Below are positions 1,307 through 60,608 of a DNA stretch of 64,000 nucleotides, piece by piece. Position numbers and translations under genes: made by a program. The DNA comes from a virus. The notes below the pieces were generated by a model. The model saw only the letters and a program-made list of their open reading frames with translations. It was not told the origin of the DNA and did not search any database. Numbering within the stretch: position 1 is the first letter of the stretch; each line of letters opens with the position of its first letter. The DNA lies in IMG/VR virus record IMGVR_UViG_3300021168_000013; one strand, given 5' to 3'.

Positions 1307-1687
1307 ATGTTAGATATATCAACATACAATTCATTGGTTTCATCGGATATCAACTCTATAGTTTATCCTGAAAACCACATACCCACTCCACAGCCATCCG
1401 ATTACACTAATGGGTTTATCGTTAGATATTTTGCGCAGAGGATAAACACTGGACAAATTTACGAAGTGTCATCTGACAATTACAATCAAATTTCAATGTT
1501 ATTGTTTGGATTGACTTCTCTTAATTGGTACATAACTGGATCATTGAATGTTGTAAAACAAAATAATATAATAATGCAACCCGGAGTAATATCGTTGAAT
1601 AAAACCTCCGTTAATACTGCCAATCAAGCTATGGAAGGATTAACCCAATTCTTACCAAATCTATCCCAGTTTTATAAAAACGTTTGA
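1307..1687 (+). CDS. Conserved phage baseplate-region hypothetical protein
   Basis: 126-aa ORF 2 nt after the hub gene; motif PTPQPSDYTNGFIVRYF is typical of jumbo-phage structural-region proteins. Confidence 0.5.
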   Translation: MLDISTYNSLVSSDINSIVYPENHIPTPQPSDYTNGFIVRYFAQRINTGQIYEVSSDNYNQISMLLFGLTSLNWYITGSLNVVKQNNIIMQPGVISLNKTSVNTANQAMEGLTQFLPNLSQFYKNV

Positions 1688-1712
1688 CATTTCACCTGTT
1701 CTATGATATGAT
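1684..1712 (+). promoter_or_regulatory. sigma70-type promoter for polA-like gene
   Basis: TTGACA (1684-1689), 17 nt, TATGAT (1707-1712) with TGn extension; ATG 9 nt downstream. Confidence 0.75.
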
Positions 1713-1721
1713 TAATGTTGA

Positions 1722-3065
1722 ATGATCATATCCAGTGATGCAGAATATAATAAGTTCTTGATTGAAAACACAAATGGGCGTTGTATTGTCCATATTGTGA
1801 CCAATAACGATAATATTCACTCGGCCATCGCTAAACCCCTCTTAATATTCGTTAAAAACATAGATATTGATAAATTATATATAATTAATATAAACCATTA
1901 TGATATAGACTATAGGGTAGACCAAGAACTCTTCATAAAAGATTTTAATAACTTATACTGTATTAAATTTGTATTAGATAAGAAGAGGTTCATGCATCTC
2001 TTACCAATCATAAATTTGAAGGATTTACAGCTAATAGACTTCATGTTGTATGGAAAGCCTGATGAAACTAATTATATACCTAACGAATATAGGTTTTATT
2101 ATAATAGGTTTGAAGATTATGATGATATTAATAATGCCATACCATTGACCATTCATAGTAGGGTATTTGATAATATTTGCAATGTTTATGAGGAAACCAT
2201 TGAATCTTTCGTGGAGGATAGTGGATATATCGGAGTTAATGACAATATTTTGGATAACTTGCAACAAATTGAGAAAAATGGATTATATGTAGATAAGAGT
2301 GTGTTCTCCAAACATTTTGATGCAAAAGTGTCAAATAACTTGGTACATACCGAGTATAACATTTATACTGCTACTGGTCGTCCAAGTAATAGATTTGGAG
2401 GAGTCAATTATGCTGCTTTAAATAAAGATGACGGTTGCCGATCAAGTTTCGTATCAAGACATGGGGATGATGGAATATTGTTTCTAATTGACTACAGTGC
2501 TTACCATCCACATATTGTTGGTAAACTTATTAATTATAGTTTACCAACTGATGTCTATTCATATCTTGGTAAGTATTATTTTACCAAAGAAGAATTGTCG
2601 CCAGAAGAGATTAAATCGGCGAAGAATATGACATTTCAATGTATGTATGGTAATAACATTCCTACGGAGTTTTTGACTATACCATATTACGCTAAGATGA
2701 ATGAATATATCAATCATCGATGGGAATTTTTTAATGATAATGGATATGTCGAGACTCCCATTTATAAGCGAAAGATAACATCAAAACATATAATCGATCC
2801 AAACCCAAATAAGTTGTTCAATTACATATTACAGGCATCGGAAACTGAATTCGGTATGACCGTTGCAAATGATGTAAATCGATATCTACGGAATAAACAG
2901 ACAAAAGTAGTATTATACACTTACGATAGCTTATTATATGATGTACATAAGGATGATGGTAAACAGACTTTGGTTGATATCAAGGGTATAATGAGTAATA
3001 CTGGATTCCCCGTAAAGTGTTATATTGGGTATGATTACAATAAAATGATAACGGTTAATATTTGA
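1722..3065 (+). CDS. polA: Short divergent family A DNA polymerase
   Basis: TGRPS, motif A LIDYSAYHPHI, motif B AKNMTFQCMYG, motif C YTYDSLLYD; both catalytic Asp kept; N-terminal exonuclease domain degenerate. Confidence 0.8.
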   Translation: MIISSDAEYNKFLIENTNGRCIVHIVTNNDNIHSAIAKPLLIFVKNIDIDKLYIININHYDIDYRVDQELFIKDFNNLYCIKFVLDKKRFMHLLPIINLKDLQLIDFMLYGKPDETNYIPNEYRFYYNRFEDYDDINNAIPLTIHSRVFDNICNVYEETIESFVEDSGYIGVNDNILDNLQQIEKNGLYVDKSVFSKHFDAKVSNNLVHTEYNIYTATGRPSNRFGGVNYAALNKDDGCRSSFVSRHGDDGILFLIDYSAYHPHIVGKLINYSLPTDVYSYLGKYYFTKEELSPEEIKSAKNMTFQCMYGNNIPTEFLTIPYYAKMNEYINHRWEFFNDNGYVETPIYKRKITSKHIIDPNPNKLFNYILQASETEFGMTVANDVNRYLRNKQTKVVLYTYDSLLYDVHKDDGKQTLVDIKGIMSNTGFPVKCYIGYDYNKMITVNI

Positions 3066-3104: not shown

Positions 3105-4607
3105 ATGAAGAATTTAGACCGTATTTTATTAGAGTATTTCACAAAAAGAGAAGATGGTGGGGCAAATTTCAATTCAAAAAGTTATGACGATTTGCAACAT
3201 TTTGAGACATTTTTGATCGAATGTGGATATATTCATAGTTTCGATAGAGCCAAATTGAACGAATTATTTGGTTCTTCCACGTTGTCTAAAACCATAAGTA
3301 CTGGTGTTGGTAAAGTTACATCGAAATTAAAGTCTTTTTGGCGTAAAATATTAGATATCGTAAAGTCTGGATATTCTCAAATAGTTAGACGATTCCATAG
3401 TGAATGCGGAAGAATTGAAAGTGATATCAAAAATTACGATTTAGGTGAAGAAATACTTATACCATTACCACGAGTTACCGAGCCAAACCTATCAGAATTC
3501 TCAGATGCAGTAAATAATGTCACATCATTACAAAGTGGGGTTGCTCCAGAAGGAGAAGCTGAGATAGGTGAAGCAAAAGAGGGTGCTACAGCATTTAAAG
3601 GATATTATAATGAATATCTTACTTGTGAATATATTTTAGCCATGGATAGTGGTAAATTGAATGAGGATTTTTCATTACTTCATGGTGTCTCTCCCGATCC
3701 AACCGTTAGACTAACTGATCCAAATAGAACTACCACACAATTTATCCGTAGCAAATCCCGTGAATATTATCAAAAATTGAAAGAAGTTTGTGGTGATGAA
3801 TTTGATGACACCAATAGAGTAGTAAATTTAGGCAGTAAACAAATGGCTGATTATCTCATTGATGCTGCTAAAAAATCAGGGGCGTTTATTTACGACATTC
3901 AAGCAGTCGGAGAAGATAAAGAAGGTGTGGCCGATATTTTGGTTAAAATGACTAGAACCGAGGGTGATTTCTCCAATGCTTATTCATTAAAAATATCAGA
4001 AGGAAAGAATATAAATTTGGCCAATAGAACATTCGGTACTCAAGTTGAACAATTATGTGGCAACGCCCAAGTCAAAGAAGAACTTAAGAAACGTTTAATG
4101 TCAGACCCAGAATATAAAAAAGCATTTGATCAAGGAAAAATATTGAATGCTGAATTACAGGCACAAAAGAGAGCTAAGAATACTAGTAAATTAGCTGATC
4201 TCAGAAAAGGAAGAGGATTGGCTAGACAAAAACTGAATTTGATTGCAGCAAAAGTCCTTTATGGATTCTTGAAAGATTTCAATGATAAGAATAAACTAGC
4301 ATTCAGTCAGAATTTACAAAAATTACTTGGTTTTTCGGATAAGGATATAGGAATTTTAACGGCGATAGTAAAGAAATCCAAAAAAGAAGGTGGTTATATG
4401 TCTGAACTATTAGCAAAAAAACCAGAATTTGATTTTTCTAATTTAAAGGTCACATATGACAACGGAGTATCTATTAAAATTATTAATGAAAAAGCAAAAC
4501 AAGTAATTGTCACAATATCTCTTAAAGAAGGTGTTGCCGCAGCAAACTGGGTAGACTTTTCATCCGTCACTCCATTCGATCAAGGATTCGTTCCATTTGA
4601 GGTATAA
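3105..4607 (+). CDS. Hypothetical protein, possible PD-(D/E)XK restriction-endonuclease-like domain
   Basis: ATG at 3105 preferred over TTG 3093. GYYNEY...ADILVK...YSLK resembles an E...D...SxK nuclease core. N-terminus resembles that of the next ORF. Confidence 0.45.
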   Translation: MKNLDRILLEYFTKREDGGANFNSKSYDDLQHFETFLIECGYIHSFDRAKLNELFGSSTLSKTISTGVGKVTSKLKSFWRKILDIVKSGYSQIVRRFHSECGRIESDIKNYDLGEEILIPLPRVTEPNLSEFSDAVNNVTSLQSGVAPEGEAEIGEAKEGATAFKGYYNEYLTCEYILAMDSGKLNEDFSLLHGVSPDPTVRLTDPNRTTTQFIRSKSREYYQKLKEVCGDEFDDTNRVVNLGSKQMADYLIDAAKKSGAFIYDIQAVGEDKEGVADILVKMTRTEGDFSNAYSLKISEGKNINLANRTFGTQVEQLCGNAQVKEELKKRLMSDPEYKKAFDQGKILNAELQAQKRAKNTSKLADLRKGRGLARQKLNLIAAKVLYGFLKDFNDKNKLAFSQNLQKLLGFSDKDIGILTAIVKKSKKEGGYMSELLAKKPEFDFSNLKVTYDNGVSIKIINEKAKQVIVTISLKEGVAAANWVDFSSVTPFDQGFVPFEV

Positions 4608-4609
4608 TT

Positions 4610-5386
4610 ATGATAGATAAAATATTAAATGCAATATGTTTAGACGAGAGAGTTACAGATGGAACCTTTCGTATGGATAATAATGAGCACATGGATATTC
4701 TTCAAGAGTATTTGGAAAAGAGCGGAACAACAAAAGCCAATAGTGTAGTATACCGAAATAAAATGATCGAGGGTAAGTTTCCAGAACGTCAAGCATATAA
4801 TACTAATGGTATATTGGTAACGTTTCCTACACCAGAATATAAACAGAAAGCTATAGCTAGAGGTACTCATTTTGAGGCCAATCCAAAAAAAGGACAGGCC
4901 AATGTATTTCAAACACCGCCAGCATCAGGGACAGCACCAGAGGCTCCAGCAGCATCCGGATCAGCATCAACTCCTCCTGCAACTCCTGCTAGCGGAACTC
5001 CACCACCCGCACCCACAACTTCTCCTGCTCCTCCAGCACCCGACACAAAGCTTGGCCCTGAAGATTTGGCAACACCAACTACTCCGCCGCCAACGGAACC
5101 TACCGACGGAAAAGAATTAACTGCTAACGCTGTGGAAAAGGACACAAGAACTCCAGCAGAAAAGGCTGAAGACGCAAAAGCAATACAAAACATACTTTCA
5201 TCCGCTCCAGCATCTATTGATATCACGAAAAATTATCCAAACTTGGAATCTTTGACTTATACTTTAAAGGAAGCAAAACAGAATAATTTTTACGAAAAAA
5301 ATGGTAAGTGGTATACAGACGGCGGCGAATATATTGGAGAAAAATGGTATAACGAAACACTTGGTAAGATTTTAATATCCAAATGA
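4610..5386 (+). CDS. Hypothetical protein with Pro/Ala/Thr-rich linker (probable virion protein)
   Basis: 258-aa ORF coupled to neighbours; low-complexity PAT segment at about 4910-5105. Confidence 0.6.
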   Translation: MIDKILNAICLDERVTDGTFRMDNNEHMDILQEYLEKSGTTKANSVVYRNKMIEGKFPERQAYNTNGILVTFPTPEYKQKAIARGTHFEANPKKGQANVFQTPPASGTAPEAPAASGSASTPPATPASGTPPPAPTTSPAPPAPDTKLGPEDLATPTTPPPTEPTDGKELTANAVEKDTRTPAEKAEDAKAIQNILSSAPASIDITKNYPNLESLTYTLKEAKQNNFYEKNGKWYTDGGEYIGEKWYNETLGKILISK

Positions 5387-11719: not shown

Positions 11720-14635
11720 ATGATTATAACAGATAAATTTGCAAACAAATATAAAAATAAACAGCCTAATTGGGGATTTAATGGACTAGGATATATAGTA
11801 TACAAAAGAACTTATTCAAGATTGAAAGAAAACGGGGAAACCGAGGAATGGTATGAAACGGTACAAAGATGTATAAATGGAGCACAAGATATTGGTGCGG
11901 ATTATACACAAGAGGAAGCGGAAAAATTATATGATTTAATCTTCAATTTTAAATGTAATTTTGCTGGAAGAATGTTATGGCAACTTGGTACACCTACCGT
12001 TAAACGTTGGGGGGCCAATAGTTTACTTAACTGTCTACGAGGAACAACAAGAGTACTAACCAGACAAGGATGGAAAGAAATTCATACATTGGTTGATAAA
12101 ACAGTTGAAATTGTTACTAAAAATGGAAAATGGGTAAATGCTCCATTTAAATCTTATGGAAAACAAAATTTAATGAAAGTTGTTTTCGAAGATCGGTATG
12201 GTAATATTGAGGAAGTATACGCCACTAAAAATCACAGATGGTTTTATTTGGATAAGAATCATAATTCTATAGAAACCACAACAGAAGAATTGCAGACGGG
12301 AGTTAAAATACCAGTAATACGAGGAAAAAATTCATCAAAAGGATTAAGCCCACAAGGAATCCAACATGGTTTGGTTTTTGGTGATGGATCATGTAACGGA
12401 TATGAATCCTTCGTTGATTTGATAGATAATACTTATGATGAATGTGCTAATTATTTTAATTTGAATAGGATAAGTTGGACAAATCCCGATAATAGCAGAC
12501 ATGTTAGATATGGTGGAATGCCAAATTACTATAAATCCCTTCCGAATATCAATGAAAATAAACAATATTTGTCTGGATTCTTGGCGGGATGGATAGCCGC
12601 TGATGGAAGTGTGAACAAAAGTAATGGTAGGATTAGATTATTTAATCGTGATAAAGAAGTTTTAATGTTTGCTAAAGATGTTGCTGCTGTGTTGGGATAT
12701 AGAACATCGGAGCCATATTTAGAAAGGGATCATAATCCGTTTGATTTGGATGATGAATCTTGTGAATTATGGTCGATAACTTTTTATACATCCGATAACC
12801 CACATCATTTGATTATAAGAAAAGATCATCTATCTAAATTAAATGATTTTGATAGGGATTATAATAATTGGACAAAGGTTATAAAGGTTGAAACTACGGA
12901 TTTAAATGAAGAAGTTTTCTGTGCCGAAGTTCCCGAAACACATTCTTTTGTTATTCAAGGTAATATTTTAACAGGAAACTGTTGGGCAGTCGCTATGAGA
13001 GAACCAAAAGCCTTTTTATTCTTATTTGAGAATTTAATGCTTGGTGGTGGAGTGGGATATAGCATTCGTCGTGAAGATGTTCATGAATTACCAAAGATTA
13101 AAGTGGATGTAACAGTATCACATCAATATACAAAGGATGCCGATTTGATAGTTCCTGATAGTAGAGAAGGATGGGTTAAATTACTGGAAAATGTTTTAAA
13201 TGCGTATTATGTAACTGGCAAATCATTCTCTTATTCAACCATATTGATAAGAGGAGCAGGAGAGCCAATTCACGGTTTTGGTGGTAAGGCAAGTGGTCCA
13301 GCAATCTTGGTAGAGGGTATATCAAAAATTGGTTCTATCTTTAAATCCAGAGAGGGAAAGAAACTACGTAGTATTGATGTGCTTGATATCTGTAACATTA
13401 TTGGAAGTGTAGTCGTTGCTGGTAATGTCAGAAGAAGTGCTGAAATTGCATTAGGTGATCCCGATGATATTCTTTATCTCAGAGCAAAAAATTGGAGCAG
13501 TGGCAATGTTCCAAATTGGAGAGGTATGAGTAACAATACTATATATGCCGATGATTTTGATCATATTATGAATGAAATCTGGGAAAATGGATACATATTG
13601 GATAAAGAAACAGGAATGGCCAAAGGTGAACCTTATGGATTTTTCAATCTTCCATTATCTCAAAAGTTTGGTAGAATTAAAGATGGCCCAATTAAAGATA
13701 ATAAGATGTACCCAACAAATGTTGATAATTGTGAAATGACAAATCCCTGTGCCGAGATTAGTCTAAGCAATTATGAATGTTGTAATCTTTGTGAATTATA
13801 TCTTAATAATATAGAAAACAAGGAAGAATTGATTGACTGTGCCAAATTGTTGTATAAGACACAAAAGGCTATATCCGCACTTCCATTTATTCACGAAGAA
13901 ACCAATAAGATTGTTCATAAGAATATGAGACTTGGTTTAGGTGTCACAGGAATCTGTCAATCACTTGACAAGGTTGATTGGTTGGATGATTGTTATGTTG
14001 CATTGAGAAAACTTGACAAACAATGGAGTAAGGAAAAAGGTCATCCTGAGAGTATCAAGCTTACCACAATTAAACCTAGTGGAACATTGAGTCTATTAGG
14101 TGGAGCAACACCCGGTGTGCATCCAGCTTATAGTCAGTATTATTTTCGAACGGTTCGCATGGCAAGCAGTGATAAATTAGTACAGATTTGTAAGGATTTG
14201 GGATACCATACTGAATATTTATTGAATTTTGATGGTAGTGAGGATAGAGGCACCGTTGTAGTATATTTTCCATGCGAAACTCCATCTAATGCAATCTTGG
14301 CAAAGGATATGGATGTTATCAAACAATTGGATATGGTAAAGAAGTTACAGAACATATGGAGTGATAATGCCGTAAGTGTTACAGCATATTACAAGGAAGC
14401 CGAACTTCCTGCGTTAAAAAACTGGTTATCAGATAATTATAAGAACCATGTAAAGAGTGTAAGTTTTCTTTTGCATAAAAAACATGGATTTAAACAGGCT
14501 CCTTATCAAGAAATCGATAAAGAAACATATGATAAAGCCAAAAGTCTAGTAAAATCACTTAATAACATAAAAATTGGTGGAGGAGAAATTATTCAAGGGT
14601 TAGAATGTGAAGGTGGAGCCTGTCCTATTCGATAA
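11720..14635 (+). CDS. nrdJ: Class II (adenosylcobalamin) ribonucleotide reductase containing an intein
   Basis: YKRTYSR, LLN|CWAV, GNVRRSA, TNPCAEI, CCNLCE, TIKPSGT, C-terminal CEGGACPIR redox pair. Confidence 0.95.
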   Translation: MIITDKFANKYKNKQPNWGFNGLGYIVYKRTYSRLKENGETEEWYETVQRCINGAQDIGADYTQEEAEKLYDLIFNFKCNFAGRMLWQLGTPTVKRWGANSLLNCLRGTTRVLTRQGWKEIHTLVDKTVEIVTKNGKWVNAPFKSYGKQNLMKVVFEDRYGNIEEVYATKNHRWFYLDKNHNSIETTTEELQTGVKIPVIRGKNSSKGLSPQGIQHGLVFGDGSCNGYESFVDLIDNTYDECANYFNLNRISWTNPDNSRHVRYGGMPNYYKSLPNINENKQYLSGFLAGWIAADGSVNKSNGRIRLFNRDKEVLMFAKDVAAVLGYRTSEPYLERDHNPFDLDDESCELWSITFYTSDNPHHLIIRKDHLSKLNDFDRDYNNWTKVIKVETTDLNEEVFCAEVPETHSFVIQGNILTGNCWAVAMREPKAFLFLFENLMLGGGVGYSIRREDVHELPKIKVDVTVSHQYTKDADLIVPDSREGWVKLLENVLNAYYVTGKSFSYSTILIRGAGEPIHGFGGKASGPAILVEGISKIGSIFKSREGKKLRSIDVLDICNIIGSVVVAGNVRRSAEIALGDPDDILYLRAKNWSSGNVPNWRGMSNNTIYADDFDHIMNEIWENGYILDKETGMAKGEPYGFFNLPLSQKFGRIKDGPIKDNKMYPTNVDNCEMTNPCAEISLSNYECCNLCELYLNNIENKEELIDCAKLLYKTQKAISALPFIHEETNKIVHKNMRLGLGVTGICQSLDKVDWLDDCYVALRKLDKQWSKEKGHPESIKLTTIKPSGTLSLLGGATPGVHPAYSQYYFRTVRMASSDKLVQICKDLGYHTEYLLNFDGSEDRGTVVVYFPCETPSNAILAKDMDVIKQLDMVKKLQNIWSDNAVSVTAYYKEAELPALKNWLSDNYKNHVKSVSFLLHKKHGFKQAPYQEIDKETYDKAKSLVKSLNNIKIGGGEIIQGLECEGGACPIR
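12032..12979 (+). mobile_element. Intein with LAGLIDADG homing endonuclease (316 aa)
   Basis: Starts CLRGTTRV, block B ATKNHRW, LAGLIDADG motifs GLVFGDGS and GWIAADGS, ends HSFVIQGNILTGN followed by Cys+1. Confidence 0.93.
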
Positions 14636-14680
14636 AATTAACAAAACATAGTTATTATGTATGTTTCGATTAATTTAATA

Positions 14681-14688
14681 ATATTTAT
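14681..14688 (+). promoter_or_regulatory. ATATTTAT putative late-promoter motif
   Basis: 12 nt before ATG 14701; variant ATAGTTAT at 14648-14655. Confidence 0.45.
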
Positions 14689-14700
14689 TGTTACATTTGT

Positions 14701-15327
14701 ATGAATATTACCCCTGATGTATTGCAACATACTCAGCAAGTTACGGAATATATTGCCGCCATAGTCACAGCAGCAGTCACCATTCTTGCTTTTTTAGTGA
14801 AGTATGGACCCAAAATCATCAACCCAATAATTGCGCACATTAAAGAGCGAATTAAAATGGTTGAGACGTTAAAGATTATCCATGCCGAATTAACTCCTAA
14901 TCACGGCACATCCTTAAAAGACAAAATCACCAATATGCAGAGGGAATTGGTGGTTAACACAGAACTAACTCAAGAAAACACTGACATGTTAAAAGTTTTG
15001 AGCGCGAGGCAACAATGGATACTTGACATGCAAAAGGCTCCTATATTTGAGTCAGACTCCGAAGGATATTGTACATGGGTTAATGATGCATATGCTGAAT
15101 TGGTAGGTAGGGATAAAGATGATATATTGGGTAATGGATGGAAGAACTTAATACATGAGGATGATAGATATAGGGTAATAGCTGAGTGGGATAGGGCTGT
15201 AACAGAAGAAAGAAGTAGTCAATCCACATATAGAATCATGTCTAAAAACGGAAGAGTTCATGAAGTTGAATGTTATGCTACTAAACATAAAAATAACGGA
15301 TATTCAGGTAGGCTTAAACTAAAATAA
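14701..15327 (+). CDS. Membrane-anchored stand-alone PAS-domain protein
   Basis: TM helix YIAAIVTAAVTILAFLV; ELTPNHGTSLKDKI coiled coil; PAS core IFESDSEG...WVNDAY..LVG....LGNGW..LIHEDD...YR...NG. Confidence 0.85.
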   Translation: MNITPDVLQHTQQVTEYIAAIVTAAVTILAFLVKYGPKIINPIIAHIKERIKMVETLKIIHAELTPNHGTSLKDKITNMQRELVVNTELTQENTDMLKVLSARQQWILDMQKAPIFESDSEGYCTWVNDAYAELVGRDKDDILGNGWKNLIHEDDRYRVIAEWDRAVTEERSSQSTYRIMSKNGRVHEVECYATKHKNNGYSGRLKLK

Positions 15328-15364: not shown

Positions 15365-16069
15365 ATGAACAAGGCACAGTTACAGGGATTAATTAAAGAA
15401 GTAATGGAAGATATGTCAAAACAAGCTTTAAAAGCCAAACTTAAAAAGCTTGTTGTTGAGTCTATGGAAGAGATCAAGTATGAAAAGGAAGATACTGTTG
15501 TCGAAGACATGGAAGCCATCGAAAAAATTGCCAAAGAATATAATAAAGATGCAACTGTTAAATTAGGTGATGACAAAAATTATTGGATTAACGAAACTGT
15601 ACCGCATAAATTTCACATCAGACCACAAAGCGAAGGCGTGTATGACGTACAATATTTTAAAGATGACACGGACAGAACCAAAAAATTGAATTTAAAATTT
15701 GAAGAATTAAAGAAATTTATCAAAGACACATTATCAAACAAAGACCTCAATTACGTCAAAACCGCATATAACAAAACCGCAGGAAACAGTGAAGATCAAA
15801 TTGAAAAAGGCGAAATCCCAACACATCACAAATTCGTAAAGAAAGAAGTTAAAGACACAAAGAACGATAATAAAGATTATACTGAACCAATGGTTAAAAA
15901 CGAAAAAGACTTACAAGATAAACCAATGTATGCCGTTGAAAAATTTGAAAAACAATCCGATCATTCAATCAAAGGCACAAAACCAGATTACACATATCCA
16001 AAACAAAAAGACAAAAAACTCTTAATCAAATTAAAAGCGTACAGAAACAAAACAAGAAAAAAAGACTAA
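15365..16069 (+). CDS. Lys/Glu-rich hypothetical protein (probable head-associated)
   Basis: 234-aa ORF; N-terminal LKxLI.E-type repeats; many C-ending codons; followed by a terminator. Confidence 0.65.
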   Translation: MNKAQLQGLIKEVMEDMSKQALKAKLKKLVVESMEEIKYEKEDTVVEDMEAIEKIAKEYNKDATVKLGDDKNYWINETVPHKFHIRPQSEGVYDVQYFKDDTDRTKKLNLKFEELKKFIKDTLSNKDLNYVKTAYNKTAGNSEDQIEKGEIPTHHKFVKKEVKDTKNDNKDYTEPMVKNEKDLQDKPMYAVEKFEKQSDHSIKGTKPDYTYPKQKDKKLLIKLKAYRNKTRKKD

Positions 16070-16085
16070 TATACCCTTTAACCCG

Positions 16086-16117
16086 AAGGCTGAATGTAAA
16101 AAATTCAGCCTTTTTTT
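16086..16117 (+). terminator. Intrinsic terminator
   Basis: AAGGCTGAAT-GTAAAAA-ATTCAGCCTT followed by a T tract. Confidence 0.85.
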
Positions 16118-16126: not shown

Positions 16127-16155
16127 TTGACTTTGTATATATTATAATATAGAAT
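16127..16155 (+). promoter_or_regulatory. sigma70-type promoter, leaderless configuration
   Basis: TTGACT-17-TAGAAT, 6 nt before ATG 16162. Confidence 0.75.
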
Positions 16156-16161: not shown

Positions 16162-16470
16162 ATGACGTTACAGCAGAAAAATACTGTCCCAAATATAGAC
16201 ATCCAAACCCAATTGGATAATTGCGTAAAACTGAAGCCAGATGACTTGGTTATCAGTGATATTAAGTGGAAATACTTGGTTCGCAGTGTTTTACGAGGAA
16301 AGAATGTTTTATTGACTGGCCCTACTGGATGTGCTAAAACGTTGGCAGCAGTTTCTTCCAGAGAAGCACTATATTCTGAGTATACCGAAGAAATGGATGA
16401 TACCCAATTATCTTTGTTAAAATTGGATAATAATATAAAAATTATAAAAATGGAAAAAATTGAGGGTTGA
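16162..16470 (+). CDS. MoxR-like AAA+ ATPase, N-terminal fragment (Walker A)
   Basis: KWKYLVRSVLRGKNVLLTGPTGCAKT, then a non-AAA tail of about 33 aa and TGA. Confidence 0.8.
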   Translation: MTLQQKNTVPNIDIQTQLDNCVKLKPDDLVISDIKWKYLVRSVLRGKNVLLTGPTGCAKTLAAVSSREALYSEYTEEMDDTQLSLLKLDNNIKIIKMEKIEG

Positions 16471-16528
16471 GAATAAATTATAAAAAAGCACTAAGTGGAA
16501 ATTATAATTTTATAAAAATAATAAATAA

Positions 16529-17284
16529 ATGAAACATAAAATAACATATAGAAAATATAGACCATTATTTATATTTAATTGTGGTAGTTCACAAGATGCG
16601 CGATCAACATTAATCGGAAATACATCTTTCAAAAAAGATGAAGGAACCGTATATAATCCGTCTGAATTTGTCAAAGCTATACAAACTGAAAATGCCATAA
16701 TTGTATTGGATGAATTGAGTAGAGGAAATCATGATTTTTTTAATATTATTATGTCAGTATTGGACCCAATTCAGCGTTATTTGAGACTTGATGAACGTGA
16801 TAATAGTGTATTGGTCAAAGTGGCAAATAATGTCACTTTTATGGCTACAGCTAATATTGGTAATGGATATACGGCAACCAGAGTCATGGATAAAGCATTG
16901 CTTGACAGATTCTCGGTTAAAATAGAAATGTCACCTTTGGATCAAGAAGAAGAATATGAGTTAATGATCCGAAAGTTTAAGATTACAGATGATGACATCA
17001 AGTTTACATTGAAAAGTATAGTGGCGATTGCTGCTCACACAAGACAACAGATTAAGATAGAAGATGGTAAATTAACCAATTTCTTATCAACGCGTAGTGT
17101 GGTTGAAATGACTGAATTATTATTGGATAAGTTCACACTCGAAGAAATAGCCGAAAATGCCATTTATCCAAATTTTCCCACAGAAGGTGGTGCCGATAGT
17201 GAACGAGTTTATATAAAACAACTTGTTCAAAAATATGTGTCCGTTGAACCAGACCCCGAAGATGCTAATATTGCTCCATTTTAA
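16529..17284 (+). CDS. MoxR-like AAA+ ATPase, C-terminal fragment (Walker B, sensor, Arg finger)
   Basis: RPLFIFNCGSSQDARSTLIG, IIVLDELSR, ATANIG, DKALLDRF, STRSVVE; different frame from the N-fragment. Confidence 0.85.
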   Translation: MKHKITYRKYRPLFIFNCGSSQDARSTLIGNTSFKKDEGTVYNPSEFVKAIQTENAIIVLDELSRGNHDFFNIIMSVLDPIQRYLRLDERDNSVLVKVANNVTFMATANIGNGYTATRVMDKALLDRFSVKIEMSPLDQEEEYELMIRKFKITDDDIKFTLKSIVAIAAHTRQQIKIEDGKLTNFLSTRSVVEMTELLLDKFTLEEIAENAIYPNFPTEGGADSERVYIKQLVQKYVSVEPDPEDANIAPF

Positions 17285-20429: not shown

Positions 20430-20807
20430 ATGTGGAAAACAATTATAAAATATATAATTGGTATTTCCGTGATCATTGGACTGCTCGTTCTTGACTATAG
20501 TACTCCATTAGCCATACCACCCACTATTACGTTGGTGGTATGTCTCTTTATATATCAGGAACGAAAAATACGTTCCTTGACCAAGGAAACCCAAATCAAT
20601 GTTAATTACATTGAAGCACTGATGAAAAATATAAAAACCATAAATGATAATTTGAAGTCCTTGGACAAGGATTATCGTGTCATTTTTAAGAAATTGGAAA
20701 AGTGCGAATCAATTATAGATAAAGTTAAAGTAGAAAAAAAGCTTGAAATTAACCGAGTATATGGTAAAATAGGAAATGCGAACCAAGTCTCAAGAACCAA
20801 AACCTAA
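20430..20807 (+). CDS. Membrane protein, two TM helices plus coiled coil
   Basis: YIIGISVIIGLLVL and ITLVVCLFIY hydrophobic segments followed by heptad repeats. Confidence 0.6.
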   Translation: MWKTIIKYIIGISVIIGLLVLDYSTPLAIPPTITLVVCLFIYQERKIRSLTKETQINVNYIEALMKNIKTINDNLKSLDKDYRVIFKKLEKCESIIDKVKVEKKLEINRVYGKIGNANQVSRTKT

Positions 20808-26129: not shown

Positions 26130-26334
26130 TTTGTTCCTTAAATACTTCTATACATAATACGTTCTTATCATTCACCATTACCATAGTTCCATCTTTCTTA
26201 AGAAACTTAGTAAATTGACCTTGTGATATAGATGATGACACTATTCCACTAAATGTTCGCTTTTCTCCACCAACAAAATGGATTATTTGGGTAACGGTAT
26301 CTCCCTGACTATTAACTGATGATTTTAGATTCAT
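26101..26334 (-). CDS. Small beta-rich hypothetical protein
   Basis: 77 aa from ATG 26334 (ATGA overlap with upstream stop). Confidence 0.6.
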   Translation of the reverse strand: MNLKSSVNSQGDTVTQIIHFVGGEKRTFSGIVSSSISQGQFTKFLKKDGTMVMVNDKNVLCIEVFKEQNEDILQNQQ

Positions 26335-27134
26335 ATACTTATACATTCCTGATTTATATTATGATAATGACATACACCAATCTCTTCTAGAAATATATTT
26401 TTATGACTACAATCGCATACTTTATAATTCTCCACTAAGTTTAACAATTCATTGAATGCAGCATCTGATATTAAATGTTTACATTTGAATTTGTTTCTAA
26501 TCACACATTTTGCCAACAATTTCTCACAACTGAAGTTTGGAATATATTCCCATACTTTACCATTAAAATTACGAACCGAATTGCAATAATTGTATGCGTC
26601 GTCCACATCCTTTTCATTATTGATATAATCCACTGTGTTTTTTATTATATAAAAATTGGTTTGGGGATATAAATAATCATCGGTCATGTAGTTAGCCATA
26701 TAATTTTGAATATTGTGATCGAATTTATTTAATCCTGAATATCCTATTGCTTGAAGGAAATAAAAATCATATTCATCCGTAACAGGATACTTTAGCAATC
26801 TATCTCCCAATAATATATCATTTACTCCCTTGTATATAAAGTTTATAGGTAACATCTTAGCATAATTAACCACGGCATTATCGCTATCCATGTATCCAAT
26901 GGTATGTCCTCTGTTTTTTTTGGGCGGAAGGATTATAACATCTTTGCCAAATACTGTCCTCCATACGGCATCATAATCAGATAGATATGGTTCTGCCACA
27001 TCTGAGCAATTTTGATGAACTACTATATAATTAAATTGGGACATGATTGAATAGTTATGTAACAACATACGATTCAATGTCTCTATGTCTTCTTTTTTAC
27101 TTAAATGTCCTATACTACAATAACAGTTATTCAT
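26331..27134 (-). CDS. Hypothetical protein, possible glycosyltransferase
   Basis: 267-aa coupled ORF in the glycosylation operon; NRGHTIG..D and NDILL motifs. Confidence 0.5.
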   Translation of the reverse strand: MNNCYCSIGHLSKKEDIETLNRMLLHNYSIMSQFNYIVVHQNCSDVAEPYLSDYDAVWRTVFGKDVIILPPKKNRGHTIGYMDSDNAVVNYAKMLPINFIYKGVNDILLGDRLLKYPVTDEYDFYFLQAIGYSGLNKFDHNIQNYMANYMTDDYLYPQTNFYIIKNTVDYINNEKDVDDAYNYCNSVRNFNGKVWEYIPNFSCEKLLAKCVIRNKFKCKHLISDAAFNELLNLVENYKVCDCSHKNIFLEEIGVCHYHNINQECISI

Positions 27135-28018
27135 GCAATCTTATTTAAAATATATCTAGCCATTTCCTTGGTGGTACAGTGTTGTTTAAAATGTAAAAAA
27201 CATTCATCCATTATATCATAATATTTAGTAATGTCAAAGTCTTTGTTTATTAACTCATTACCACGCTTAATTGCATCTTTCGGTAAAGTAGTCAATGTAT
27301 GTTCCGGACATTTATCTATGTCTAAGAAATAAGGCATACAGTAATTACCCATTATCTCATAATGTCTCATGCAATCCCATCCTGCTTTTTTCATTGTAAC
27401 TCCATAATATGAGTTATTATAATCTTTGAAATAATCAGTTTCATTACTGAAAATATACGTTGATTTTTCTCCGGGAATCACAGTACCATAGGATTGAATC
27501 TTCTCTTTATTAGGAGTGGATATCTTACATGTTGGATATGAAAATGATATTGGAAATACATTAGAATGATATGAATAACACTCTCTTTTGAAATACGGAT
27601 GAATATCAGATAAAGAATGAACATAACAATCATCATTGCCATCTAATAATACTATTTTCTTAGGATCGTATACTTTTTTTACAAGTTCAAAATAATCAAG
27701 ACATCTTCTGGAAGCACCATACACTATTAAATCATAATATTTATTCTCGATTTTAGATTGTATATTAATTCTATTAGGATTGTCACCATCAATTAACCAA
27801 AAAGCCGTCATTCCTCCCCACAAACATTGTTTTGGTATTTTGGATTGATTTTCTTTATATAATGATATGATCGGGGTGGAATCCACTATTTCATCTATAA
27901 CACCATCTTTAAACAATTCATAGAAACCATAGTAGGTTAAGTCATTTAAATAATCAGATATATAACCACCACTACATGCTGCAATAGAATTGTGATTTGT
28001 AATATACAATACTTTCAT
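27131..28018 (-). CDS. Putative GT-B glycosyltransferase (GWDCMRHYEI family)
   Basis: LLDGND, YFKRE, KKAGWDCMRHYEIMGNYCMPYF. Confidence 0.55.
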   Translation of the reverse strand: MKVLYITNHNSIAACSGGYISDYLNDLTYYGFYELFKDGVIDEIVDSTPIISLYKENQSKIPKQCLWGGMTAFWLIDGDNPNRINIQSKIENKYYDLIVYGASRRCLDYFELVKKVYDPKKIVLLDGNDDCYVHSLSDIHPYFKRECYSYHSNVFPISFSYPTCKISTPNKEKIQSYGTVIPGEKSTYIFSNETDYFKDYNNSYYGVTMKKAGWDCMRHYEIMGNYCMPYFLDIDKCPEHTLTTLPKDAIKRGNELINKDFDITKYYDIMDECFLHFKQHCTTKEMARYILNKIA

Positions 28019-28019
28019 A

Positions 28020-28844
28020 TTATAATGTTATCCATCCTTCTGGGAATAGAGTATCTATATTGGTTATATGAGTGACCGATTTACCGAACCAATGACTTTT
28101 TGGTGCCACTGTCATAGTGTCTTTGTTTTTGTTAAGATAAGCCGCCCACCAGCTAAATGTACTGTTACCTAATATATTATGATTGCATAGACTCATGAAC
28201 ACCAAATCGGATATGTTAGTTTCATTTTCTATAAAATTGACATTGTCTGGAAACATTCCCTTAGCAAAGGCGATATTGTCTGAAAAAACATTTATGTTTT
28301 GTATATCACGTAAATCGCATATCATATTGATAGCTTCTTGATAATACTCGGATGGCACAATAGGAAACGAATCTCTTAAAAGATGTCTATCTCCGCCTAC
28401 TCGTACATGGACAGCTATTGAATCGGGTATTATATTCTTATATTTATCCCGAACATAATTAACATGACTATCTCTGAACTTGTAATAATCATTCACAATT
28501 TTATATTTAATGTCGTTAAAATAACGATCACTCTGGAAATAACCAGATATCAACATGTTGTCTTTGGCTTTAACCGGTTGATATGAAAAATTATATTCTG
28601 GATTAGTGGGATGAACTGCATCATTATGATGATATGTATCATATCGCTGTGAAAACTCATTAACAAAATTGAATTTATGAGAAAATAGGTTAGGAATCTC
28701 TAATGGTCTATGATCGTTTGATATATAACAATCACGAATCTTTAAGATTTCATAATTTGTTCCTAGTTTTTCCGTAAGAGACAAACAGTTGGCCAGTTGG
28801 AATAAGTTATTACCCAATTCTCCAGAAAACATGCATGATATCAT
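28020..28844 (-). CDS. GT11 alpha-1,2-fucosyltransferase-like
   Basis: GELGNNLFQ, GYFQS, HVRVGGD, ILGNSTFSWWAAYL. Confidence 0.88.
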   Translation of the reverse strand: MISCMFSGELGNNLFQLANCLSLTEKLGTNYEILKIRDCYISNDHRPLEIPNLFSHKFNFVNEFSQRYDTYHHNDAVHPTNPEYNFSYQPVKAKDNMLISGYFQSDRYFNDIKYKIVNDYYKFRDSHVNYVRDKYKNIIPDSIAVHVRVGGDRHLLRDSFPIVPSEYYQEAINMICDLRDIQNINVFSDNIAFAKGMFPDNVNFIENETNISDLVFMSLCNHNILGNSTFSWWAAYLNKNKDTMTVAPKSHWFGKSVTHITNIDTLFPEGWITL

Positions 28845-29662
28845 AGACTATCATTATAAAGTATCGAAATACCTTTGTCGAGAGAAATCTTTGGTTCCCA
28901 GTAGTTTAATATATATGGATCAGGATCATTTACCATGCCCATTTGAACATTATCTACCTTATCACCTTTTATAATTTCGCAACCAGATAGACCACTTATT
29001 ACATTGGCAATATCCATGATGGAATTCCATTGAAAACTGGTGATATGATAATTTTTAGCTCTATCCAATGTGAAATAATTTTTAGCCAAGATTAATAGTG
29101 CTCTAGCACAATCCTCACCAAATAAGAATTGACGGACTTCATCTCCAGTAGTTCTCATTTTTATACTCTTATCTTTGATAGACATATTAATGAAATCGGT
29201 AATTACATGGGATTTCTCTTCATTGGTTTCATAACCATAAACATTCCAAAATTTAACGTTAATACCATTTAACGCGTCAGTGTGTCTCTCACCAATGGAT
29301 TTTAATATACCATAAGTAGAGTGATGCATGTTTGACATCTGAGAGGACGCGAATATAAACGGTTTGTTTAAGGATTTGAGTAATTCAAATGTATTACTCA
29401 TTATTCTCATGTTATTGTCTATGAATTCATAGGTATTTTGGTATTTGGCCATATACTTTGATCCACCGATATCAAATGCCAGAAAATGAACGAAATCCGA
29501 CTTAATTATCATGTCCGTAAGCAATAGATTGTTTCGAACTCGTAGATCATATAATCCATTATCCTCTATATCAAAGGTGAGTACCTCTTCATTTACAGAT
29601 TTTAAATATTGAACCAAATATTGGCCAACTTGTCCTGACGATCCTAATACTAGATGTTTCAT
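28841..29662 (-). CDS. NAD-dependent epimerase/dehydratase
   Basis: LGSSGQVG, FASSQM, YGILK, NVYG. Confidence 0.85.
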   Translation of the reverse strand: MKHLVLGSSGQVGQYLVQYLKSVNEEVLTFDIEDNGLYDLRVRNNLLLTDMIIKSDFVHFLAFDIGGSKYMAKYQNTYEFIDNNMRIMSNTFELLKSLNKPFIFASSQMSNMHHSTYGILKSIGERHTDALNGINVKFWNVYGYETNEEKSHVITDFINMSIKDKSIKMRTTGDEVRQFLFGEDCARALLILAKNYFTLDRAKNYHITSFQWNSIMDIANVISGLSGCEIIKGDKVDNVQMGMVNDPDPYILNYWEPKISLDKGISILYNDSL

Positions 29663-30474
29663 ATTATTTTTGGGGTCTTATAGTAGTTTTTTAACGTTTC
29701 GATATTCTCATTCTTTAGTTTAACATATAACCTTTGATTTCTATCGGTGTATTCCTTGTATTTATTTTGTAATACTCTCTCATGCTGCACATGGAATACT
29801 GGCCCGTATACTCTTGTCATTTTGATATTAAATAGATTCATCTTAAAGATGTATTCAGAATCCTCATATCCCCAACCATTAAATTCTTCATTGAAATATA
29901 CTAGATCACCAAGCAATCTCTTATTAACTATCATACAAAATCCCGTAGCATAAGCAATTGGTGGATATCCATCCTCGATATGACGATGTAACATCATTTT
30001 TGGAGCAATCTTAAATTGAAGATTGTAAAAGTCATAATCCGTCTCAAATTCCTTAAAGTAATCACGCTCAATGTGATATTCTGGATTGGTATAAGGAAAT
30101 ACCAAAGGAAATTTATCCTGACACAATTCCACACCTAATTCAATCTGTTCTTTTGGTAATAGAATATCACAGTCATATATTACACATATATCATTACTAG
30201 CAATCTTCAATCCTTCGTTGATTATCTTTGATCTATAATATGGGTCAGGCAAATCACAGGAAAATATGCGTATATTGCTCAATTCATATTCATGAAATAA
30301 TTTAGTCAGATATTGTACGCAATTAACCTCTTCGATTGGTGTGTTATTTTGTAATATCACTAAGTATTCAGCTTCATCTTTAAATTGGTAGGTGAGATAA
30401 ATCAACGATCTCAATAGGTTCGTTAGTCTATCAACACTGTCGTATTTAAACTGAATTATAAACGTAAACTTCAT
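29659..30474 (-). CDS. GT2/GT7-type glycosyltransferase
   Basis: YDCDILL (DxD), FNEEFNGWGYEDSEY, FHVQH. Confidence 0.8.
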   Translation of the reverse strand: MKFTFIIQFKYDSVDRLTNLLRSLIYLTYQFKDEAEYLVILQNNTPIEEVNCVQYLTKLFHEYELSNIRIFSCDLPDPYYRSKIINEGLKIASNDICVIYDCDILLPKEQIELGVELCQDKFPLVFPYTNPEYHIERDYFKEFETDYDFYNLQFKIAPKMMLHRHIEDGYPPIAYATGFCMIVNKRLLGDLVYFNEEFNGWGYEDSEYIFKMNLFNIKMTRVYGPVFHVQHERVLQNKYKEYTDRNQRLYVKLKNENIETLKNYYKTPKII

Positions 30475-31298
30475 AATAAGTAATTTTCGGCGATGTAATC
30501 ATCAGCAACTGGAAATTCACAGGCGATTTTAAAATTTTCTTCTATATATGGCATCATGGAATTATACAAATCATCAGTACAATCATTTAGATTGAAATTA
30601 TCTGAGAATATTACACCTTTCGGATTGAAATACTGTTCCACAACTGATTTACTGCCCCTATATATTGGAACTGTATATGTTGTCATTGGACTGGTCAATC
30701 TCTCCGTAAAATATGCATCACTAACATCATTTTCCATAGATACCGTGAAATTGTAGTTCTTATAGGCATCATCAGTTATTTTAGGTTCGTTTTCTTGTCC
30801 TCTCCCATATAAATTGAGTTTATTTTTATTATCAACCGCATATTCTACACGATATTTGTGTCCAGCCAACGTATAATTCTTAGAAACCAACATACTTATC
30901 ATTCGGTACTTAGTGTGGCGTTTTCTATTTTCGGATAATGTCCATGGCGCGGCATTGGATATAGCATAGTAAAATGGATGCCCAATCTGAACCAAATCCA
31001 TCTGACAGGTGAATATAAATTTATAATTATTCTGAAATTGTTGTAAATTTTTTAATATAACATCTATTACTCCCTGATTGTATCCTCGGGATTCCAATAA
31101 CCACCCGTATTTGTTAGGGTTATTATTCAACCCACTCAATATATTTCCGTCTATATACATATCAAAATCATAGTCACCGACATAATTTTTTGGTAACCAT
31201 TGAATATGTTTAGATGTATTCATATGAGAAGAACACACTGAATCATTTTCATTTGGGGAAATACATCCCCCAATTGGTTTCATTTTTAGCTTACTCAT
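30471..31298 (-). CDS. GT10-like glycosyltransferase
   Basis: WLLESR, FTVSMEN...YFTERL...VPIYRG. Confidence 0.7.
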   Translation of the reverse strand: MSKLKMKPIGGCISPNENDSVCSSHMNTSKHIQWLPKNYVGDYDFDMYIDGNILSGLNNNPNKYGWLLESRGYNQGVIDVILKNLQQFQNNYKFIFTCQMDLVQIGHPFYYAISNAAPWTLSENRKRHTKYRMISMLVSKNYTLAGHKYRVEYAVDNKNKLNLYGRGQENEPKITDDAYKNYNFTVSMENDVSDAYFTERLTSPMTTYTVPIYRGSKSVVEQYFNPKGVIFSDNFNLNDCTDDLYNSMMPYIEENFKIACEFPVADDYIAENYLL

Positions 31299-32116
31299 AA
31301 TTTAATCCATTCATCTAAAAACAAATCTTTTATATCCAATTTCTTAAGTGATCCACCGAACCAATAGTTGGCTGGAGCAACGGTTATATGACCTTTATGT
31401 TTATTGAGATAAGCTGACCACCAACTAAATGTACTGTTACCTAATATATTGTGATTACACATACTCATAAATGTTAAATCTGTTATATTAGATTCATTCT
31501 CTATGAAGTTTACTGATTCTGGAAATATTTCTTTAGCTATGGACATTTTATCGGAAAATACATTAATATTCTGTATATTAGATGAATCATACACAATGGC
31601 CAATGCTCTTTCATAGTATTCACTAGGCACTAATGGAAATATATCAGAACACAGTGATCTATCGCCTCCACCTCTAAAATGAATAGCAATTGAATTAGGT
31701 AATATGGATTTATACTTATCATTTATGTAATCAATGGTATCAGGATTAAAAGCGAAATAGTCATTGACAAGTTTATCTTTTATGTTCTCAAAGTATTTAC
31801 CGCTCTGAAAATAACCATTCAATTTTACGTTATCTTCATGGGGAATTGGTGAGTATGCAAATGTATAATAAGGACTATCTTGCTCGAATAGATCAGGGTG
31901 ACGATAATGACCATACTCTTGAGAATAACTATTAACGAAATTGAATTTATGAGAAAACAATTTACTTACCTCAATGGGACGGTCTTCATTGGAAATCCAA
32001 CAATGTCTGGATGCTGATATTTCATAATCAACATTTATAGCATCCTTTATAGAAAGACATGTGGCTAATTGAAACAAATTATTTCCTAACTCTCCATGTA
32101 ATCTACTGGTTATCAT
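31295..32116 (-). CDS. GT11 alpha-1,2-fucosyltransferase-like (paralog of 28020-28844)
   Basis: GELGNNLFQ, GYFQS, HFRGGGD, ILGNSTFSWW; start at 32116 by TAATG overlap. Confidence 0.88.
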   Translation of the reverse strand: MITSRLHGELGNNLFQLATCLSIKDAINVDYEISASRHCWISNEDRPIEVSKLFSHKFNFVNSYSQEYGHYRHPDLFEQDSPYYTFAYSPIPHEDNVKLNGYFQSGKYFENIKDKLVNDYFAFNPDTIDYINDKYKSILPNSIAIHFRGGGDRSLCSDIFPLVPSEYYERALAIVYDSSNIQNINVFSDKMSIAKEIFPESVNFIENESNITDLTFMSMCNHNILGNSTFSWWSAYLNKHKGHITVAPANYWFGGSLKKLDIKDLFLDEWIKL

Positions 32117-32673
32117 TATTTTAGTTTCCATCCTTCCCAGTCCCATTCATGATTATATGTCTGATCATGTGTAACACTTAGTAAATTTTGACAGGTTTTT
32201 CTTTCCTCGTCATGATTTTGTATTACTTTATGGAATTGAATTTGAATAAATTTTATATTATCGGCATGTTTACTTGCACAGAGTGTTTTGATTATCTCAA
32301 ATTCCCCGCCTTCACAATTTAATTCTAATAAATCTATAGATGTTATGGATTGATCTGAAATAAATTGTGATATATCCATAATATCAATAGATTCCGTTTT
32401 TCCTTTTGGACTGAATACCGATGTTCCTGCTCCGTTTATCTGGATATTTCTTTTTTCTGTTTTATTTCCTAACCCAAAATTATGGACTTTTATCTTGGGA
32501 TTGTTTTGGTATTTATTGACCAATCCATTGTAATAATCCCTTACTGGCTCAAAAATGTAAATATTGCAGTGATATGTGTCAAACATTTCTTGAGAGAATT
32601 CCCCAACGAACCCACCAACCTCAAATATTAGAGAATTTTCATTTAATGGGTGATTTTTTCTGTCATCTATCAT
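32116..32673 (-). CDS. FkbM family methyltransferase
   Basis: FEVGGFVG, IFEP, LELNCEGGE, QIQFH. Confidence 0.85.
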   Translation of the reverse strand: MIDDRKNHPLNENSLIFEVGGFVGEFSQEMFDTYHCNIYIFEPVRDYYNGLVNKYQNNPKIKVHNFGLGNKTEKRNIQINGAGTSVFSPKGKTESIDIMDISQFISDQSITSIDLLELNCEGGEFEIIKTLCASKHADNIKFIQIQFHKVIQNHDEERKTCQNLLSVTHDQTYNHEWDWEGWKLK

Positions 32674-59984: not shown

Positions 59985-60608
59985 TTAATTTATTACGTCA
60001 ACAACACCAAATTCAAGTGCTTGATCTGCCGTTAAAAACAAATCGTGCTTGAGTAAATCGTTTAATTGCTTTGATTTAAACTTGGTATGTTCCAAATACA
60101 CCCTTTTTAGCACAGTCATGAACAAATCCAAATTTTCGGTGGCATCTTTGATTTCTTCGAGTTTTCCAATGGCACCACCACTGACTTGATGAACCAAGAT
60201 GTTGGAGTTTTTGGTGATGAAACGTTTTTTACCGACAACCGATACTAAAGTTGCGGCACTGGCGACTGCTCCTTCACAGAATGTGTAAACTGGAATTGGA
60301 TTGGTTTTGATTTTATCAACCAAAGCTAAAGCGGGACTGACTTCACCACCATCACAACTGATATGCAATTCAATTGGGGGAGGTTCTGTCATATTATATA
60401 TTAATTGCAATAACTTTAACTGTCTGGTTACTTCATCAATTTGCTTTGATATGGATAAAACCAACGAACGGTCAATATCGTCATATAAATAGATTCGGTT
60501 TCCTACAGGGGTTGCGTTGTTCAATAATCCATCTGTTGAGAGAGTGATTATTTGTTGTTTATCGTTTGAATCGTCGTCGTCCGCTAGTTTTGGTTTCCAG
60601 TGTATCAT
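59985..60608 (-). CDS. clpP: ClpP-like serine protease
   Basis: IELHISCDGG, ASAAT (Ser), VHQ (His), HDLFLTA..A..FG.VD. Confidence 0.92.
   Translation of the reverse strand: MIHWKPKLADDDDSNDKQQIITLSTDGLLNNATPVGNRIYLYDDIDRSLVLSISKQIDEVTRQLKLLQLIYNMTEPPPIELHISCDGGEVSPALALVDKIKTNPIPVYTFCEGAVASAATLVSVVGKKRFITKNSNILVHQVSGGAIGKLEEIKDATENLDLFMTVLKRVYLEHTKFKSKQLNDLLKHDLFLTADQALEFGVVDVIN

Follow-up and report, generated by a model that had tools for sequence, protein, structure and literature searches.

We describe a 208-aa membrane-anchored PAS protein encoded in a 64,000-nucleotide stretch of viral DNA (IMG/VR virus record IMGVR_UViG_3300021168_000013; this whole stretch is hereafter called the window), where an intact 208-codon open reading frame (ORF) occupies positions 14701–15327 of the plus strand. 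The protein consists of a one-helix N-terminal anchor, two long helices split by a conserved motif, and a complete PAS domain, with no output domain, and we consider both this architecture and the family assignment solid. Profile comparisons suggest that the anchor family is a remote homologue of the DUF2746 proteins, rather than a member of that family. Our preferred reading, which we hold tentatively, is that the protein is a LysF1b-like membrane regulator of lysis timing whose cytoplasmic end gained a PAS sensor. It is more doubtful whether the protein and its relatives together form an undescribed and very widespread class of phage lysis regulators with their own cytoplasmic PAS domain, distributed over actinophage-like, T4-like and jumbo uncultured phages. 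A preliminary description of the locus, made from the sequence alone, had placed its start at 14648, which falls in the 65-nt spacer 3′ of the upstream ribonucleotide reductase (RNR) gene and includes a promoter-like box; the coding sequence starts not before 14701. The same description's outline of a single transmembrane (TM) helix followed by a complete PAS domain that reaches the stop codon, without a kinase or cyclase, was borne out by the ORF, Pfam matches, an AlphaFold2 model and Foldseek, which all agree.

Residues 14–32 form the sole strongly hydrophobic segment of the protein, with a mean Kyte-Doolittle hydropathy of 2.03. Its short N-terminal flank has a net charge of 0 to −2 in 17/17 close homologues, and its C-terminal flank is net positive in 14/17 and carries 2–8 lysine or arginine residues in all of them. 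Given this acidic to neutral N flank and basic C flank, the positive-inside rule predicts an N-out/C-in topology with a cytoplasmic PAS domain, so that the protein is predicted to share a single N-terminal TM domain (TMD) in N-out/C-in orientation with the DUF2746 proteins. The motif that follows reads E-L-T-P-N-H-G-x-S-L-K-D (ELTPNHGTSLKDKI in the window protein) and is near-invariant: E63, P66, N67, G69, S71, L72 and K73 are identical in the 17 homologues and D74 in 16/17, and N67, G69, S71 and D74 are conserved at 96–100% among 147 diverse relatives. The AlphaFold2 model (17 homologues; mean predicted local distance difference test score, pLDDT, of 81) has helices at residues 4–64 and 72–110, separated by a low-confidence loop at residues 65–71. 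The preliminary description had seen the motif as lying within a coiled coil; the long helices are indeed there, but a single continuous coil is not, given that the motif interrupts two helices.

Pfam PAS_3 matched residues 127–199 (E = 4.4e-13; 49.7 bits against a cut-off of 25.6), PAS_4, PAS and PAS_9 also scored above their cut-offs, and NCBIfam TIGR00229 matched at 37.8 against a cut-off of 22.9. The model contains the five-stranded antiparallel sheet and flanking helices expected of a PAS fold (strands 115–118, 124–127, 173–180, 186–195 and 201–207; 10-residue block-mean pLDDT >90), and Foldseek placed it with PAS, short-LOV and FixL structures at probability 1.0. Identity to the best solved PAS matches is ∼13–24%. 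The final strand stops at residue 207 of 208, and nothing follows the domain. Across diverse relatives the domain retains generic PAS_3 positions only (G122, W147, W163 and others). The LOV adduct-cysteine motif GxNCRFLQ is absent, as residues 144–151 read G-N-G-W-K-N-L-I with the position judged by eye; in this by-eye alignment W147, which is conserved in 97% of relatives, sits where the LOV cysteine would be.

The same build recurs across a large family. A word-based search recovered 16 further proteins of 196–221 aa and 35–59% identity with the same ends as the window protein. Searched against 1.8 billion cluster representatives, a profile built from only the N-terminal 100 residues matched 380 protein clusters at a threshold of E ≤ 0.001. 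Among the best 150 of these 380 clusters, 114 of 115 proteins of 161–260 aa carry a PAS domain related to that of the window protein, 32 proteins of ≤160 aa are anchor-only forms of ∼100 aa, and one match is a spurious repeat. Pfam, run on 148 of these 150 relatives, found PAS families and no kinase, DHp/catalytic, GGDEF or other output domains. As a separate observation, a single member among the best 150 (P0100, 396 aa) combines the anchor with two tandem PAS domains, still without an output domain.

We found this family to be phage-borne and mobile. Among the 171 viral loci that three scans of IMG/VR yielded, on contigs of ∼4 kb to 304 kb, 118 have a full-length PAS form and 39 the anchor alone, and BFVD holds two proteins annotated as PAS domain [uncultured Caudovirales phage], 195–205 aa long, that align over most of the model. 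Among GenBank phages (50,697), neither megablast of the region nor tblastn with four PAS-form queries detected a PAS form; in cultured phages we found solely anchor-only forms, in Arthrobacter and Thermobifida phages. Matches in representative bacterial genomes were limited to anchor-only or PAS-only fragments. Whatever its role, the family is among the commonest sensor-domain proteins of uncultured phages, and our literature search found no publication describing it. Because cultured Arthrobacter phages carry anchor-only relatives, experiments on the module are already feasible.

The anchor module connects the protein to small phage membrane proteins. In a PHROG search with the 17 close homologues, phrog_9869 (unknown function) matched 17/17 (best E = 3e-7), phrog_404 (“minor tail protein”) 9/17 and phrog_15431 (“holin”) 8/17. 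Hidden Markov model (HMM) and profile matches extend over the TM helix, spacer and motif, identifying a phrog_9869-type PNxGxS membrane module, and hhalign of the N-terminal module of the window clade against 31 anchor-only proteins gave 99.6% (E = 6e-24, 78 columns). Gene product (gp) 22 of Arthrobacter phage Mufasa8, a 156-aa protein with a TM helix and ELRPNHGGSIKDRI, matches phrog_15431 at 1e-64 and phrog_9869 at 1e-17, with no Pfam match, and is encoded after the tail genes, directly before endopeptidase, holin and peptidase genes. In Laroye-type phages, the anchor-only homologue (Laroye gp72) comes after minor tail genes. The statement in the preliminary description that an xPNxGxSLxD motif occurs in small phage membrane proteins near lysis genes thus holds, given the phrog_9869 and phrog_15431 matches and the gene context of Mufasa8 gp22.

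The link to DUF2746 became visible with a reference alignment of seven true members, one from an actinomycete genome and six from phages. Against these seven proteins, the anchor-only family aligned by hhalign at 91% (E = 1e-6) over 36–37 columns centered on the motif, compared with at most 1.7% for 60 column-shuffled controls and 2.6% for a reversed alignment. Single-sequence hhalign against one DUF2746 protein reached 41%, seven members being needed for a useful test, and an ESM Atlas search with the N-terminal module gave sub-threshold leads alone (0.80–0.81), a DUF2746 cluster among them. The DUF2746 protein family matches about 1000 records of mycobacteriophages and Gordonia phages, and its genes lie after lysin A, lysin B and holin in ArcusAngelus, after holin in Shweta, after lysin B and a membrane protein in Gaia, and among minor tail genes in cluster A and Gordonia phages. 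Deletion of the DUF2746 protein LysF1b severely impairs lysis in F1-cluster phages, and such lysis regulators are 92–150 aa long with a highly charged cytoplasmic tail as their sole C-terminal part (PMC13056207). LysA2b, the D29 homologue of LysF1b, has its gene 3′ of the tape measure gene, far from the lysis cassette. The protein is required for normal lysis, its deletion likewise causing severe defects, and has been proposed to activate the two-TMD protein LysA2a (bioRxiv 10.64898/2026.08.27.747656).

Transcription signals offer a further hint. The preliminary description had reported a late motif upstream of the gene. A candidate phage late-type promoter element, the ATATTTATTG box, is present there, and the identical 10-mer recurs 5′ of the head-maturation-protease gene (59985..60608, minus) and of a gene at 3105, but the related 10-mer TAATATTTAT is not significantly enriched (5 occurrences vs 1.95 expected). 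A AATATTTAT box is conserved 5′ of the PAS gene in three relatives (L001, L004 and L006), and in the same three the RNR gene is followed by a hairpin and U-tract (z = −5.2, −4.2 and −6.9, respectively). In the window, a scan for sigma-70 promoters and terminators around the PAS gene gave results no better than shuffles. Given the terminators in relatives and the gene's own putative late-type box, the PAS gene probably does not share a transcript with the RNR gene, and its expression may be late.

The protein is predicted to sit in the inner membrane as a single-pass protein with a 13-residue stub outside and the remainder in the cytoplasm, running from a juxtamembrane helix through the P-N-x-G-x-S-[LIM]-[KR]-D turn to a second helix and the PAS domain. 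The anchor with its motif is an old phage-specific unit that also occurs alone as ∼90–150-aa proteins and is probably distantly related to LysF1b and LysA2b, the one-TMD, N-out/C-in regulators needed to trigger the two-TMD holin of mycobacteriophages. We infer that the module would act late at the membrane on the lysis-timing step, either through a holin partner that it activates or restrains or through self-assembly, and that the PAS domain, probably dimerizing via the preceding helix, would tie this step to a cue in the cytoplasm, for example a ligand or the redox or energy state. When lysis occurs determines the burst size and fitness of a phage, and to our knowledge few inputs of the lysis clock have been described, namely holin concentration, membrane potential, and T4 superinfection sensing via RI and RIII. 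If true, the lysis-timing reading would give the lysis machinery a direct molecular means of sensing the chemistry or redox state inside the cell, with a metabolite, redox or energy signal in the host fed straight to the holin clock via a LysF1b-like one-TMD anchor. Given that the family is present in hundreds of phage lineages, this would then be a general principle and not a curiosity.

Several observations weigh against a role in lysis. Pfam PF10874 (at least 23 bits) did not match the protein, its N-terminal 105 residues, 148 relatives or the Mufasa8 record, and we therefore rejected direct DUF2746 membership; what stands of the DUF2746-like character claimed earlier is the probable remote profile homology of the anchor-only family, and the N-terminal module of the window clade itself aligned with DUF2746 at just 78% over the same 36–37 columns. 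The “holin” label of phrog_15431 is automatic and appears in RefSeq re-annotation only, where GenBank submitters had put “membrane protein”. Lysis function is established for mycobacteriophage DUF2746 proteins only, while the PNxGxS family is known from sequence. No conserved cofactor signature was found in the PAS domain in the alignment of family relatives. The PAS gene of this phage lies in the replication and nucleotide module, between the RNR and MoxR-type ATPase genes, and neither beside lysin or holin genes nor downstream of the tape measure gene. Canonical holins (classes I–III) are small lethal membrane proteins whose genes adjoin the endolysin gene; there is no adjacent lysin in the window, and lysins are rare in our neighbor tally, which covered 72 PAS-form loci (dereplicated at 70% identity) and Pfam annotation of their 132 immediate (±1) neighbors, with counts taken from the 25 most frequent of 33 families: GH108/PG_binding_1 and Amidase_2 each occur once. 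Small membrane proteins are not enriched beside the PAS gene (11–18% vs a background of 15%). Lysis timing is plausible, without support from the position of the gene in the replication module. Given that LysA2b sits among tail genes, away from the cassette, a position outside the lysis cassette is itself a weak argument against a lysis role. In T4-like phages, the lysis genes are in any case dispersed over the genome.

Neighbor families differ by clade, with no family-wide neighbor or partner, and this pattern bears on the first alternative, a moron-like membrane accessory gene that acts autonomously in superinfection exclusion or host takeover. Its product, anchored in the inner membrane, would keep a second phage from entering or change some membrane process of the host, and the PAS domain would tune this activity. 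We consider this alternative unlikely, while recognizing what speaks for it. Unrelated, clade-specific neighbors (tally counts: RNR 9, portal proteins 9, Mom 5 and patatin-like phospholipase 3) fit a self-sufficient mobile gene; on the temperate contig L025 the PAS-anchor gene closes a rightward operon just before the integrase region, a typical moron site; and the T4 membrane immunity genes imm and sp lie in an equivalent region of uvsX, helicase and nucleotide-metabolism genes. However, we found no similarity to Imm, Sp or known superinfection exclusion (Sie) proteins, and the profile link is to lysis regulators. The PAS gene carries a candidate late-type box in place of the sigma-70-like promoters that precede other window genes, whereas early or lysogenic expression is usual for exclusion genes.

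The frequent RNR neighbor raises the possibility of a redox, oxygen or nucleotide-pool sensor coupled to RNR, for instance by tethering or regulating deoxynucleoside triphosphate synthesis at the membrane. The PAS gene lies directly downstream of the RNR large subunit in 9/72 dereplicated loci, these RNR neighbors include two class II enzymes just 23% identical to each other (L004), and in L003, where the neighborhood is otherwise different, the RNR beside a PAS protein of 35% identity is a small-plus-large pair of class I. Nevertheless, 63/72 loci have no RNR neighbor, strong terminators separate the RNR and PAS genes in three relatives, the PAS gene has its own promoter-like box, and small actinophages have the anchor module by itself where tail and lysis genes meet. 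We therefore regard such coupling as improbable.

Still less credit attaches to the suggestion, made in the preliminary description, of a dominant-negative decoy that heterodimerizes with host PAS sensor kinases and silences them. The absence of an output domain would suit a decoy, and the TM-linker-PAS order is collinear with sensor kinases, NCBIfam MASE3_PAS_HK aligning with residues 13–201 at E = 3e-12, far under its cut-off. A decoy should track host kinases, yet this PAS domain, which has no close cellular relative, is kept with a phage-only anchor across hundreds of clusters and across phages of very different base composition. A word-based search for longer proteins containing the PAS part found no relative, a blank result being weak evidence with that search, and the solved PAS matches have low identity. 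We disfavor the decoy and consider it very improbable. The weakest alternative, a recently captured, truncated and functionless host sensor-kinase gene, has a weak collinear match to sensor-kinase N-termini in its favor, but is contradicted by the data and was rejected: the 17 intact homologues all stop at the same point, more than 100 clusters share the length and build, the kinase fusion that the preliminary description had named as grounds for this view was not seen in any relative searched, and the N-terminal module is homologous to phage proteins, not to kinases.

The coordinates of the gene, its parts and the adjacent signals are given in Table 1. In the window clade, the gene order is gp32, UvsX/RecA, 5′-3′ exonuclease, DnaB, class II RNR, the PAS gene, a 234-aa lysine/glutamate (K/E)-rich gene (orf234), a MoxR-type ATPase and a ∼690-aa protein. 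The orf234 gene is retained at +1 or +2 of the PAS gene in 8 dereplicated loci, in the window clade only, and has no Pfam or PHROG match. A protein search of the PDB with the large neighbor of the anchor-only short forms found no match either.

Table 1. Positions in the window of the PAS gene, its protein segments and adjacent features.
Feature	Coordinates	Strand	Basis
Coding sequence, 208-aa membrane-anchored PAS protein	14701..15327	+	Intact ORF; 17 full-length homologues, 35–100% identity
N-terminal anchor module, residues 1–100 (TM, helix, motif, helix)	14701..15000	+	phrog_9869 matches; profile comparison
TM helix, ∼residues 14–36, predicted N-out/C-in	14740..14808	+	Hydropathy 2.03; flank charges in most homologues
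Signature motif ELTPNHGTSLKDKI, residues 63–76, turn between two long helices	14887..14928	+	Conservation; low-pLDDT loop 65–71
PAS domain, residues 107–207, predicted cytoplasmic, no output domain after it	15019..15321	+	HMMs, AlphaFold2 model, Foldseek
Weak AT-rich hairpin after RNR stop codon	14644..14666	+	No better than shuffles, z = 0.22
ATATTTATTG box, candidate phage late-type promoter element	14681..14690	+	Ends 10 nt before ATG
K/E-rich 234-aa gene (orf234)	15365..16069	+	Own ATATTTAT box 5 nt 5′ of ATG; same terminator-bounded stretch
Intrinsic terminator closing the PAS/orf234 stretch	16085..16113	+	Strong
Sigma-70-like promoter after the terminator	16127..16155	+	

Two observations on possible partners deserve mention. 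At L013 (4956–5864), L015 (6555–7463, minus) and L016 (4963–5874), a patatin-like phospholipase gene (64–67% identity between loci) adjoins the PAS-anchor gene, even inverted; given that patatin enzymes attack membranes, this pairing may be functional. In the window itself, a 125-aa ORF at 20430–20807 encodes a hydrophobic N-terminal region (one scored TM helix, a second likely by eye) and a charged helical tail, and could be a holin-like candidate and a possible partner of the PAS protein. We also considered T4 gp40, a membrane-associated head-assembly chaperone encoded between uvsX and gene 41, as an analogue, and rejected it as unrelated, with no TM helix by inspection and no motif.

Promoters of the TTGAC[A/T]-N17-TATAAT type precede several window genes (16127–16155 and upstream of 19372, 19836, 22512 and 44742). 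Such canonical sigma-70 promoters are probably used by the host. This speaks against a Bacteroidota host, even though Flavobacterium phages are among the nearest helicase matches.

Other parts of the window and its relatives point to gene insertion and exchange. The class II RNR at 11720–14635 has 971 aa, compared with ∼656 aa in relatives, and its residues 106–419 (insert at ∼12035–12976) are missing from L001, L006 and L008–L010, which align seamlessly over the gap. The insert begins with a cysteine and is followed by another, which makes an intein with a homing endonuclease very probable. Further large in-frame insertions occur in DnaB at residue 215 (L009, ∼1462–3049) and in RNR near residue 790 (L010, ∼3817–5265), and Intein_splicing, LAGLIDADG_3 and Hom_end were found in two neighbor proteins in the Pfam tally; homing elements seem to be rife in this phage group. 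Rfam found no match in the whole window, group I and II introns included. The MoxR-type AAA ATPase at 16162–17284 is present as two ORFs in different frames, split by ∼180 nt extra, where relatives have a single 308–324-aa gene with 36 nt at the split point. One relative (L004/L005, 5934–7916) has another class II RNR, just 23% identical, 5′ of its PAS gene, amid flanking genes 50–77% identical to those of the window, which looks like gene replacement at a fixed site. Finally, seven head-to-tail ORFs of near-equal size (267–295 aa) at 26331–32146 (minus) may be a tandem paralogue array.

Compared with known systems, the window protein resembles sensor histidine kinases (NCBIfam NF047874, MASE3_PAS_HK) in the collinear arrangement of a last TM helix, a helical linker and a cytoplasmic PAS domain, but its family has no DHp/catalytic domains in ∼150 relatives, and it scores 46 bits against a cut-off of 560. 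Its best structural matches are the stand-alone short PAS/LOV proteins (PpSB1-LOV, PDB 5j3w and 3sw1), likewise a helix-flanked PAS core without an effector, for which signaling presumably proceeds via helix and dimer rearrangement, a likeness that we propose for the window protein. In contrast to these soluble proteins, which bind flavin via the GxNCRFLQ cysteine, the window protein is predicted to be membrane-tethered, has Trp147 at that position by eye and shows no conserved cofactor signature. With T4 lysis inhibition (holin T, antiholins RI and RIII), the proposed likeness is one of concept, in that a small phage protein would relay a signal to the lysis clock; RIII is soluble, RI is a periplasmic sensor, neither has a PAS domain, and there is no sequence or fold relation to the window protein.

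Closer likenesses are found among the anchor-bearing proteins. The phrog_9869/phrog_15431 proteins (Mufasa8 gp22, Laroye gp72) share the TM helix, the spacing and the PNHGxS[LI]KD motif, but end ∼20–60 residues after the motif, without a PAS domain, and are encoded beside lysis genes past the minor tail genes. Of the DUF2746 (PF10874) proteins, we compared LysF1b (Girr gp35, NormanBulbieJr gp33), LysA2b (D29) and Waterfoul gp32. DUF2746 proteins have N-T/S-H-x-T-N where the window family has the P-N-G-G-S turn; they are 92–150 aa long without a PAS domain, whereas the window protein has 208 aa with a PAS domain as its C-terminal half; and their genes lie in lysis cassettes or the tail region, whereas the window gene lies in the replication module of a large AT-rich phage. 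What LysF1b and LysA2b share with the window protein is the single N-terminal TMD in a predicted N-out/C-in orientation, a basic juxtamembrane stretch and a helical cytoplasmic part, together with the core E-x-x-x-N-x-[HG]-x-[ST]-x-[LIM]-[KR]-D-x-[IV]-x-R-[IL] at an equal distance from the TM helix.

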